In this document: positions 27,801 to 30,800 of the stretch, one piece after another | How the letters are laid out: each line of letters begins with the position of its first letter | Position numbering within the stretch: the first letter of the stretch is position 1 | Source: Bugula neritina | Taxonomy: Eukaryota > Animalia > Bryozoa | Assembly: GCA_964035545.1 (NCBI GenBank) | Contig: OZ037770.1 | Span: forward strand, 8,066,973 to 8,130,972 | Direction of reading: 5' to 3' | DNA length: 64,000 bases | Program-made: the position numbers and the translations under genes | Notes under the pieces: generated by a model | What the model was told of the DNA's origin: nothing | What the model saw: the letters and a program-made list of their open reading frames with translations, nothing else | The model's database searches: none

Positions 27801-30800
27801 GGTCAAGAGGAATGGGGTCTGATATTACCACAGGTCACGCAGGCCTACCGCAGTACACTACACACTAGTACTGGCGAGACTCCCAACCTCTTGATGCTCG
27901 GTCGAGAGACGCGAGTGCCAGACCACCTCACCTATCATATTCTCGAACCGGACTACTCTGTCCACGAGCATGCCGGGGAATTGATAAAGCGTCTGAAAGT
28001 CGCACACGAAATACTGCGGGAGAAGCAGTCGCAGGTGCGACAGGAAGACGCCGATGAGCCACCCTTCTACCAAGCTGGAGACTGGGTGTGGATGGTTAAC
28101 TACCGTAGGCGTCGAGGGCAAGCGGCTAAATTACAGCCTAAGTTCGTGGGACCCTACAGATATCTGTCCAGGATGAAGCCCGCTTGAAACCATATTGGGC
28201 TAGCACGGGTGCGGCGGGAGGAGTCCCCCCATTGTTAGAACCCAGGAGGCAGACAACAATGCGTGGGCGGCGGCGGCATAGGCCCAGTGATGAATGGGTC
28301 ATGCCGCGGACAGAAGACTTGGTGGGGCAAGAAAGGCCGCCCTTACAAACGGGGATGCGCCCACTGCCCCCAGTGCCAAGCCGTCCAACTCCAAGGTTAC
28401 CACCACCACTTCCGGAACTGAATACACTTCCGGAAGTGCAAAACCCCCCACACGGGAAGGGCTCCATCCGGAGAAAACAGAAGGGAAGAGGAGATGACAG
28501 CTGACGGAAGGCAGGAAATACCACCAGTAGAATGTAACAACCCACCAGTGAGTACACCGCCTCCCTCACCAGCCGCCCCATATTCCCCAGCCACGACTTC
28601 ATATCCTCCAACAAACCTTCCACCGTCCCCGGCGTCTACCACTAGTACACCCCCTGCTCTTGAAAGGGGACAACGTACTAGGCGACCCCCAGCCTATCTC
28701 CAAGACTTCATATGCGACCGCGTTACAAGCGGCAGGTATGAAAGTCTAGCTAGGTGCCGTACGGAAAAACTGGCAGCAAAATGTGGGAGTTATGAACACC
28801 ACGGAAAAACTAAGTTTTGCAAAAACAGAGTAGTGGGTGGAATTACTACTCCCGGGGCACACAGTTCCGGTCTCGCACAACAAACATGCTGTCCAGCCTT
28901 TTCTTACGCTGATGCAGTCAAGGGTAGACGTGTTTTAAATCCACCCACATCCAAGCTTGAAGGTCGAGTATGATTTCAAATACCGGGTTCCAAGGTAAGC
29001 TTGCCTAGATCTAACACCTCCACTAATGGAAATAGATCTCACCTCAGTTAACTCTGGTTTAGTCGATCTGATTGAATCACAGTTACTGGATACGGAGTCA
29101 CACGTGAATGACGACGAGGACATGATAATGGCTGACGATCTACTAGATCTGGAGCTTGACACTATGTCTCTCAGTCAGTTTACACGTTCTGACACAGTCT
29201 TTCGAGTGCCGTATAAAAATATGCATGACTCTCAGACTAGTAACAGTCGATTGTCATCAGAATTATGCTGTAAAGATCAAATTCGATCTAACAATAATTC
29301 TACTCTTTTAGACGCCACTCGCTCTCCCAACTACGGAGACATGCCACCGTTGGAGTTGGCTTGAAACGATAACACACCTCCCACCTTCCTGCCAGACATA
29401 CTACTACAGCGACACAGTTGGGTTACTCAAGAGACAGAGGAGCAAATCCAAACCCATCGTGGCAGTGACGATTGCACCACCTGCAGGCTGTGTCAACAGC
29501 ACTTCTCCACACATCGCTGTTTGCGAGTTCATATACCGCAACATTTCATAACCACCCTCTGTCCCTGTGGTGAATTTAGTTACCACAGGGACTACATCCT
29601 TCGACATCAACGCACCATGGGGTGCCATGTGGGACATCTGTACGACGTGGACCGACATAACTTCCCTACCTTCTTGAATCTGATAAAACCCTTCATCACA
29701 GTTCTTTCCCGTTTTGAGCGGCTGAAACAAGGGTTTCCATCTCCCCACCTCATTACCTACGGACCGTGTCTGAGGCCTCCCAAGCATAAGAAACCCGCAA
29801 GACCCCCTCATTCTCCCCCAGCACAAACCATACCCCGACCCACCTTCCTACCACGAGTCGTCCTACAGAGGATTGAAGTACCTAGGAAACGACGCTCTCC
29901 CTTCCCCGTTTCCTCACAACCTTCTAACAAGCGACACTGGCACTCCTCTTCCCCAAAACGGCACTCCCCTACCGCTCGGAATCTAAAAGAAGTCGAACTG
30001 CGGATCTACGACCTAGGGACTGAAGTACAATGGCTGACCCCTAGAGTGGCTGCCGCCGCCTTAGAGCTCAAAGCCCTCAAAGCCTCCGTGACCTTACTCA
30101 AGCGGGGTGACCAGGACTGAGTGCCTAGCCCGACACCGACTGTGTGACGACTCCTCGGTGTCACGGGAGAAGCGATACTTCTCTTCCCCCTTCTCCTTAC
30201 TCTACACAACTGCAGGTGGTGTCTCTCTCTCTCTCTCCCCCCCTCTTTCCGGTTGTCTCTTTCATCTCGGTGCTGTATGATCTCCTTGAATAAACGCTAT
30301 TTCTGATTGTTGTATTACCTTTTCTTTTTTTACTTTTTTTTATAGACTGTGGGTCTAACAGTTTTGTCTTTCCTTACATAGTTTTAACCGTAAATATATC
30401 AAAGTGTTTTTTTTGGTATTAAATTTTTTGTCATGTGATATTTTTGATGCTCAGATTTATCGTCGCAGATGTTTTATTTTTTTTATCTTGGTTAGGTATC
30501 AGGAAGGTGTGCTTCCTGCTGGGGGGGGGTGTAATAGGGCGTGGAAAATACGTCCCACGTGCCCTCTACCAATCAGACACTCTTATTTAGTATTTCCGGC
30601 TGTGTTTAGCCACGCAGGTCGCAAACAGGCTGAATTCATATTAAGACTAGCAGTGATGTGATACAGTAATAGTAAACGGTGATACATGATATATTTTTCC
30701 TTGGATTATATTTAATATAATAAAGACTCTAATAAATATTACCAGTGAATTATTGTCGACTTGACACACTAACTAGACTTACTAGAAGACCCACGCAACT

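Follow-up and report, generated by a model that had tools for sequence, protein, structure and literature searches.

Several Ty3/gypsy copies lie in the 64 000-nucleotide stretch of Bugula neritina DNA analysed here (the window), which is genomic DNA of animal type. In four of them (E1, E2, E4 and E5) an extra ORF with a CxxC..H..H..CxC motif lies 3′ of the integrase. Ahead of this motif two elements encode an acidic peptide, which the first-pass annotation read as a symmetric cassette exon, included or skipped to give forms with and without a possible activation domain. The locus raises the question of how the message of this accessory gene is spliced and what its product might do.

The elements and the zinc-finger protein

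Protease, reverse transcriptase (RT), RNase H and integrase are Pfam matches on ORFs of E1, and the order PR-RT-RH-INT between two LTRs is that of Ty3/gypsy LTR retrotransposons; the LTR pairs are 99.7% and 98.6% (E2) identical. Within the window tblastn matched the extra ORF at four places only (E1, E2, E4 and E5). The gene lies between integrase and 3′ LTR, and no env-like ORF occupies this slot. In E1 a pol resembling that of type B is combined with an accessory gene of type A: the E1 RT is 93–94% identical to those of E4 and E5 and 85% to that of E2, yet from ~4000 to 2800 E1 aligns better with E2. The A/B label therefore denotes a swappable cassette rather than an element lineage.

Two protein searches (46 of 371 and 57 of 812 candidates) yielded 80 distinct relatives, which are predicted ORFs, so that open frames are selected for. 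Thirty-two of them align at the ATG at 29026, 30 of which run from there into the finger region. A profile search put the family at 276 representatives for E ≤ 0.001, of which some are generic finger matches, at 105 for 1e-10 and at 39 for 1e-30. Of 20 looked up, three clusters contain gene models of bryozoans (Watersipora, Bugula), the others having no name or the label ‘hypothetical’. DNA of other copies was found neither in viral contigs nor in prokaryote genomes (0 each); metagenome contigs gave 0 and then two loci with short, weak matches. The acidic feature is real and conserved, and belongs to an apparently undescribed accessory gene; no account of this family turned up in the literature searched (outside subscription journals and Repbase).

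The main exon of E2 encodes, in order, a linker, a tandem C2H2-like domain (about 29419–29748), an RKRR stretch (29884) and a coiled coil (from about 29974). The CxxC-x12-H-x3-H spacing and beta-beta-alpha fold of C2H2 fingers are present, the first finger matches C2H2 fingers by profile (E 2.2e-6), and C28, C31, H44 and H48 occur in at least 90% of 76 sequences. The E1 fingers lie below the Pfam cut-off, and zf-C2H2_4 is matched by 6 of 76 members at E ≤ 0.01. In an AlphaFold model of P0019, a full-length relative (138-row alignment), the chain up to about residue 120 is disordered apart from a helix at 7–20; the finger domain and a 48-residue C-terminal helix are confidently modelled. Modelled alone, the finger domain (pLDDT 95) is a compact unit of 117 aa with extra helices. 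Its closest folds are DNA-bound fingers, these fold matches being weak, and model residues 23–74 overlay two-finger stretches weakly (Z 3.5, r.m.s.d. 2.9, 52 aligned). Searched with Foldseek, neither PDB nor the viral models yielded a match at E ≤ 0.001; a whole-protein VIA search gave coiled coils only, and Atlas unnamed and C2H2 clusters. The combination of tandem C2H2-like fingers, basic stretch and coiled coil makes a nuclear, oligomerising nucleic-acid binder the most likely prediction. The first-finger profile match and the two-finger overlay are shared with tandem C2H2 transcription factors (ZBTB/Kaiso, SALL, HIC2). The protein differs from these in having no more than two fingers, of which the second has a CxC spacing and a last ligand that varies, set in a compact domain with extra helices.

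Candidate splice sites and the acidic module

Two features common to all four elements had been overlooked. One is an exon-1 layout, an ATG with A at −3 in a 25-nt exon followed by a strong phase-1 donor; the other is a phase-1 donor 10–14 codons into gag. The latter, AAG/GTGAGC (exon/intron), recurs at E1 9207, E4 46528 and E5 63761 and lies 31 or 43 nt from the gag start, which in E1 reads GTG. A candidate YAG acceptor is found 42–44 nt 5′ of each exon-1 ATG. All four elements have a pyrimidine tract 265–317 nt past the exon-1 donor, and E2, E4 and E5 also have there a phase-1 YAG into the finger frame. Phase 1 holds throughout: at the exon-1 and gag-leader donors (4/4 each), at the first internal acceptor A1 (29047 in E2) in E1 and E2, and at the second, A2 (29311), in E2, E4 and E5. 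Together the sites are laid out like those of a spliced subgenomic message, their use as such being putative. Retention of intron 1 would leave a 12-codon uORF in E2.

Table 1. Elements and sequence features in window coordinates. Hairpins are predicted and splice sites are candidates.
Feature	Position	Strand	Remarks
E1	2128-9587	−	
E2	20573-30820	+	
E3			more distant Ty3/gypsy copy
E4	from 46144	+	type B
E5	56641 onward	−	type B
E2 5′ LTR	20573-20863	+	98.6% identical to 30530-30820
E2 gag start	20901-20937	+	10 codons and candidate major donor AAG/GTGAGC at 20932, phase 1; use putative
Pyrimidine tract and candidate YAG acceptor	28898-28927	+	reads FSYAD in pol-tail frame
E2 exon 1	28970-28994	+	ATG, 25 nt; ATG overlaps pol-tail stop
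E2 intron 1	28995-29047	+	53 nt; donor GTAAGC, acceptor A1 CAG
E2 acidic leucine-rich module	29048-29173	+	41 aa, 13 D/E, 0 K/R; pN/pS 0.34
E2 138-nt segment	29174-29311	+	weak donor, open frame, base-level constraint; ends in A2
Hairpin A	29225-29257	+	closing pair 29225:29257 A-U in E2, G-C in E1
Hairpin B	29259-29301	+	CTAAC branch motif 29288-29292 in 3′ arm
E2 main exon	29312-30120	+	in-frame stop at 29362-29364 breaks frame
E2 3′ LTR	30530-30820	+	
E1 exon 1	3822-3846	−	donor GTAAGC at 3821
E1 acidic module	3646-3768	−	40 aa, 11 D/E, no K/R
E1 134-nt segment	3512-3645	−	same two hairpins; no AG at 3512
E1 main exon	2715-3511	−	zinc fingers, coiled coil; open
E4 slot	51170-51466	+	exon 1 51170-51194; stop-closed segment 51242-51293; acceptor at 51466
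E5 slot	58023-58312	−	exon 1 58312-58288; stop-closed segment 58241-58191; acceptor at 58023

The boundaries first proposed for the cassette exon are there: CAG acceptors (E2 29047/29048; E1 3769/3768) and GTCAGT sites (E2 29173/29174; E1 3646/3645) enclose 126 nt in E2 and 123 nt in E1, phase 1/phase 1 in the zinc-finger frame, and the acidic peptide they encode is common to both copies (41 and 40 aa). With flanking YAG and GT, a multiple-of-three length and an open frame the segment has the form of a symmetric exon. Shuffling the E2 span 5000 times gave an open symmetric YAG..GT exon of 60–200 nt in 258 cases, so that the exon-like look alone is weak and evolutionary evidence is needed.

That evidence comes from comparison of the two copies. 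Module pN/pS is 0.34 over 39 codons (Fisher p about 0.002, from rounded counts) with an ordinary pS of 0.49, as against a pN/pS of 0.35 for the finger core and 0.10 for integrase. On this comparison the module evolves as protein-coding sequence. Were the entire 317 nt non-coding, the peptide would be a by-product of conserved RNA structure; we consider this very unlikely. The module does fold relative to shuffles (z −2.33, −1.91), the type B slot contains stops, and recurrent substitutions in the module are not especially conservative (conservative share 0.34, neutral expectation 0.40), although the finger region is itself barely above expectation (0.33 against 0.30), which leaves this test little power. 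Against a non-coding origin stand the pN/pS with its ordinary pS, the strongly skewed composition (13 D/E, 0 K/R), the lack of any link between pairing and residue variability in the module, and the rarity of an open A1–A2 span by chance (10 of 3000 shuffles).

The first-pass annotation held that E4 and E5 lack the module. The peptide is indeed absent, as it is from all 10 type B relatives found among 168 candidates, but the slot is not empty: an internal CAG and a strong donor bound a segment of 52 nt (E4) or 51 nt (E5) that is closed by stops in the exon-1 frame. Several of the 10 relatives keep an acceptor-compatible F/L-S-D/G. At base level the internal segment shows no significant resemblance to type A (z 2.0, 1.5, 1.1, −0.1). 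For internal segment and intron taken over 6 comparisons, homology to type A is not significant in any, apart from one borderline value (32 of 1000 shuffles). Type B introns fold no better than shuffles (z −0.81, −0.33) in windows that stop 13 nt (E5) and 2 nt (E4) before the acceptor.

In the relatives splice sites were read through residues rather than DNA. At A1 residue 8 has a G-first codon in all 34 copies (V 15, D 11, A 8). None of 19 variants there leaves G, whereas 151 of 361 do so at 32 other G-first columns; departures from G are, however, also rare at several columns away from splice sites (2/15, 2/16, 2/18). At A2 residue 95 (L 32, S 14, V 8 or I 1) is YAG-compatible in 55/55 and residue 96 G-first in 54/55. 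A CTAAC branch motif lies 21 nt before A2 in E2 and E5, E1 has it at the corresponding place, and the E4 site is degenerate. In contigs of three runs, two presumed to be RNA and one of unassigned type, there are 13 indel rows; among the 12 listed, 9 fall in intron 1 (7 of these at or before 29025), 2 in the 138 nt that follow the module and 0 in the module, the absence of a row proving nothing. Both indels in the 138 nt break the frame, each in a single contig. GT..AG joints were absent from the 15 of 48 joints listed for these contigs and from the one joint row of a narrower stretch, results that are uninformative on expression or splicing.

A single contiguous ORF from the ATG at 29026, the alternative offered earlier, describes well what a long form would look like. 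As the means of expression, with A1 unused and the ATG reached through leaky scanning or through reinitiation past the 12-codon uORF, it is improbable. Where M1 is aligned (32 of 80 copies, ORF-selected) it is M in 32/32, with G at +4 in 31 of 32; M-E or M-V starts recur in the diverged P0178 and P0115; in E1 and E2 alike a uORF of the same length stops a short way upstream; and indels pile up before this ATG and cancel after it. However, the ATG overlaps a branch-like motif (CTAAT, 29023–29027 in E2) 22 nt before the CAG in both copies, the G of that CAG is kept in 34/34 copies, and the exon-1 donor, strong in 4/4 elements, needs an acceptor.

The 138-nt segment

The sequence between module and main exon, 138 nt in E2 and 134 nt in E1, had been taken for an intron that contains the E1 frameshift. 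E1 has indeed lost 3 + 1 nt here relative to E2, and the 1-nt loss breaks the frame. The E1 segment lacks the AG that an intron would need at its end; past 3512 the next in-phase YAG is at 3473, with no branch motif 15–40 nt upstream. Since the closest relative of E1, P0047, reads V-E there, the lack of AG looks specific to this copy.

E1 and E2 are 78% identical over the 138 nt as against 63% over the finger core. The differences fall 8, 13 and 8 on the three codon positions, without third-position excess, and pN/pS (0.82, p 0.46) reveals no selection on residues. The segment's pS is 0.26 as against 0.79 in the finger core (p 2.5e-6); the difference from the module (p 0.17) or from integrase (p 0.08) does not reach significance. 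The fold z-score is −2.89 in E2; that of E1 (−1.22) is not significant alone. Residue variability falls with pairing along the segment (Spearman −0.42, p 0.004).

Residues 67 and 78, picked from the E1/E2 fold, report on the closing pair of predicted hairpin A. With bases inferred from residues, the pair is A-T in 37 of 51 copies, G-C in 11, ambiguous in 3 and discordant in 0, i.e. it covaries in 48/48 informative copies. On a tree of 47 rows (4 dropped for short finger coverage) two changes are needed, so that the pair switched more than once or reverted. A residue-level scan of all pairs, in which many pairs are driven by kinship, does not place these two among its top 15. In predicted hairpin B the pairing of the branch motif is 0.75–0.83 in E1 and E2. 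Its loop (29279–29284) is hypervariable: the 1-nt loss of E1 falls in it, and residue 86, also in the loop, is the second most variable codon of the segment.

The frame is open through the 138 nt in 110 of 3000 shuffles and in 30 of 80 relatives (ORF-selected); the +1 frame of E2 is stop-free too. Six diverged relatives picked by eye (P0115, P0121, P0109, P0137, P0178 and P0096) retain a single open frame that runs from LLD through 19 residues and a VPYK-like motif on into the fingers. Other sources of constraint were discarded: antisense coding (stops in all three antisense frames), shifted coding (stops in the +2 frame; pN/pS 1.57 in the +1 frame) and an internal TATA-like promoter (TATA absent from E1). 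Rfam gave 0 matches at E ≤ 1 over 28700–29500. P0043 is without most of the region, with breakpoints that by eye do not match splice sites. Judged from its sequence, the 138-nt segment is probably not an ordinary intron.

This bears directly on the cassette exon, in which exon 1, the 126-nt exon and the main exon would be joined, or the middle exon skipped, with the 138 nt removed. We regard this as unlikely. The sites exist in phase 1/1, both intron lengths (53 and 138 nt) are plausible, the 138 nt shows no protein-level selection, and type B has an acceptor–donor pair in the same slot. Residue 50, at the claimed donor, is S 36, C 6, G 3, N 2 and R 1, so GT is possible in 46/48 copies over four first bases (S, C, G, R), and diverged relatives read G-K-P or C-D-S, compatible with GT-A and GT-GA donors. 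The donor itself is the difficulty. Its U1 pairing is very weak, with −1.5 kcal/mol for the duplex as against −9.5 and −11.0 for the upstream donors, and in neither copy does it rank with the best 9 GT sites listed; at 29104 there is a GT that matches better, but in phase 0. The donor is weaker still in six copies (C-P or C-L at codons 50–51), and GT is lost in 2/48 copies as well as in P0115 and P0096. Nor does a cassette exon explain the open frame, the multiple-of-three length, the scarce indels or the spacing fixed in diverged relatives. Much of the earlier reading survives, in that the gene is most likely spliced, the module is protein-like, its acceptor is conserved and forms with and without it are possible in frame. 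What it did not foresee is a would-be intron that is base-constrained, folded, stop-free and nearly indel-free behind a very weak donor, and across which diverged relatives hold the frame open at fixed spacing. A cassette exon is probably not the main route of splicing; it may provide a minor third form.

A choice of acceptors and the possible role of the protein

The reading we prefer, tentatively and with a probability of about 0.45, is that one strong donor serves two in-frame acceptors 264 nt apart, giving a long (acidic) and a short protein. Joined to A1, the donor at 28995 (or the gag-leader donor) would give a long protein that contains the acidic module plus a spacer of 46 aa; joined to A2, it would give a short protein without the module. 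When A1 is used the 138 nt would stay in the message as a neutral, disordered spacer, which would account for a segment that stays in frame and stop-free while its residues are free to change. Hairpin B, by burying the branch point, would weaken A2. Suboptimal acceptors are a feature of retroviruses, and hairpin B may likewise tune the ratio of long to short form and help to keep genomic RNA unspliced. Alternative 3′ splice-site choice appears the simplest account of sites, constraint, folds and open frame, and would explain more than a cassette exon does. Its prediction is sharp and can be tested cheaply by junction reads.

On this reading the long form is probably an activator and the short form its probable competitor. 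The module is net negative, hydrophobic-rich (16 of 41 residues in E2; aromatics 0 in E2, 1 in E1) and predicted to be disordered (pLDDT mostly < 50, with a short helix at 7–20); acidic, leucine-rich, disordered segments fit the criteria for activation domains. Another function, which fits any splicing model, would be that of an exporter of the Rev or CERV kind, where the hairpins are the response element on the genomic RNA, the fingers bind them and the module is an export signal. The export-like pattern together with the hairpins suggests such a role: M35-x3-L39-x2-L42-x-L44 fits the leucine-rich export signal consensus, M35 and L39 are kept in 43/43 copies and L42 in 41/43, and the base-level constraint and hairpins agree with a response element. 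The short form would then be dominant negative. Yet L44 is P or S in 9/43 copies, L42 is replaced by Q in four more diverged relatives, type B introns lack excess folding and the nearest folds are DNA-bound fingers. We consider an exporter doubtful. The activator is modestly favoured, since diverged relatives have lost the export pattern, and many of the distant members listed again have an acidic N-terminus with hydrophobic clusters (by eye, not counted).

Tat, Rev, Tax/Rex and foamy virus Tas are small nuclear regulators whose messages use a strong donor and weak acceptors that compete for it, near which the RNA is structured. The present protein shows no likeness to them in sequence or fold, and its host element is without an env-like ORF in this slot. 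A close described counterpart is CERV of the C. elegans Cer1 element, an accessory protein of a Gypsy/Ty3-type LTR element made from spliced mRNA. Its description includes an NLS and an export signal, both candidates, a leucine zipper, a Cys-rich finger and an N-terminus in common with GAG, besides domains named H, M and G, a possible C4 finger and an overlap with gag (PMC10309623). The phase-1 donor in the gag frame would permit the same sharing of an N-terminus here, a further point for an exporter; the comparison is by description, not sequence. In contrast to CERV, the present gene lies 3′ of integrase and encodes tandem C2H2-like fingers and an optional acidic module. Among Ty3/gypsy accessory proteins in the literature searched, CERV is the only tested nuclear regulator (PMC10309623).

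Third ORFs that are not env, among them the GDSL, DEDDy, coiled-coil and TM types of bdelloids, are typically expressed from spliced messages and have been gained and lost between families, according to their description (PMC5408684). They share with the accessory gene a place between pol and 3′ LTR. In that text (‘zinc’ and ‘intron’, 0 occurrences) no zinc-finger regulator type and no internal alternative splicing is described.

If the preferred reading holds, simple retrotransposons would be able to control their transcription or RNA export in the manner of complex retroviruses. More speculatively, and rather improbable as a whole, a widespread, undescribed invertebrate Ty3/gypsy family might have its own tandem zinc-finger regulator with a branch-point hairpin as switch and activator and inhibitor forms, a poison exon in type B, and whole cassettes swapped between element families by recombination. 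An env-less retrotransposon would then have feedback control in the style of complex retroviruses. The family is broad and includes bryozoan gene models, and so may also be a source of host zinc-finger genes.

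E1 as a probable mosaic element

The gag-pol region of E1 (2128-9587, one of the Ty3/gypsy LTR copies) is type-B-like; its reverse transcriptase is 93-94% identical to those of the type-B elements E4 and E5, and its LTRs align with theirs at ~76%. Despite this, the accessory gene of E1 (the predicted tandem zinc-finger gene between integrase and 3' LTR) is of type A, carrying the acidic module. Comparison with E2, E4 and E5 places the switch from type-B-like to type-A sequence near 4000, within the pol tail. The combination suggests that the cassette was exchanged by recombination. 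The E1 LTRs (2128-2431 and 9284-9587) are 99.7% identical, which we read as a sign that the element inserted recently. Neither its pol nor its accessory gene is intact, however, so E1 likely depended on other copies in order to move. Judged by eye, E1 seems to have integrated into the decayed LINE-like reverse transcriptase ORFs at 81-1927.

Pol tail and candidate splice sites

Beyond R..R.RRPP.YL.DF, where integrase usually ends, the pol frame runs on through a tail that contains Cys and His residues (Table) and terminates in FSYAD(A/I)(V/A)K. This last motif and a pyrimidine tract overlap, and what reads as a peptide here may instead be a splice acceptor. At the other end of the elements, a conserved candidate donor (AAG|GTGAGC) lies 10-14 codons into gag in E1, E2, E4 and E5. 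Its phase is compatible with both candidate acceptors of the accessory gene (29047 and 29311 in E2), with which a Gag-shared N-terminus of the accessory protein would be possible. In type-B elements, an internal CAG and a strong donor (GTG|GTARGA) flank a short segment with stops common to E4 and E5; this segment is poison-exon-like.

Coordinates of features in the window
Feature	Position	Strand	Remark
Cys/His-containing pol tail	28700-28973 and equivalents in other elements		pol frame continuing beyond integrase
Candidate gag donor, phase 1	20932 (E2), 9207 (E1), 46528 (E4), 63761 (E5)		conserved
Type-B internal segment, E4	51242-51293	+	52 nt, bounded by internal CAG and donor
Type-B internal segment, E5	58191-58241	-	51 nt, bounded by internal CAG and donor
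Nucleotide-sugar transporter fragment, host-like ORF	15391-16455	+	Pfam E 7.5e-9
Host-like ORF	18815-19339	-	start resembles end of tyrosine-phosphatase domain
Host-like ORF	55822-56439	-	205 aa
Non-LTR (LINE-like) reverse transcriptase ORFs	81-1927	-	decayed; by eye
Minisatellite	12752-13326		20-nt period
Minisatellite	14389-15444		31-nt period
Minisatellite	30995-31568		26-nt period
Minisatellite	37976-38226		16-nt period

Other elements, gene models and ORFs

E2 has a low-GC insert of ~2.5 kb between gag and protease (22000-24500). The 3' part of the more distant copy E3 (35500-38300) holds no trace of the accessory gene; the sequence 3' of its integrase consists of unrelated repeats. The finger domain also occurs in bryozoan gene models (P0091/P0231, P0159 and P0228), one of which has two copies of it and a C-terminal helix-like stretch; these models are possibly host-domesticated genes or annotated element genes. 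A Pfam search of the ORF at 18815-19339 gave no match, and the transporter fragment ORF contains a long simple repeat.
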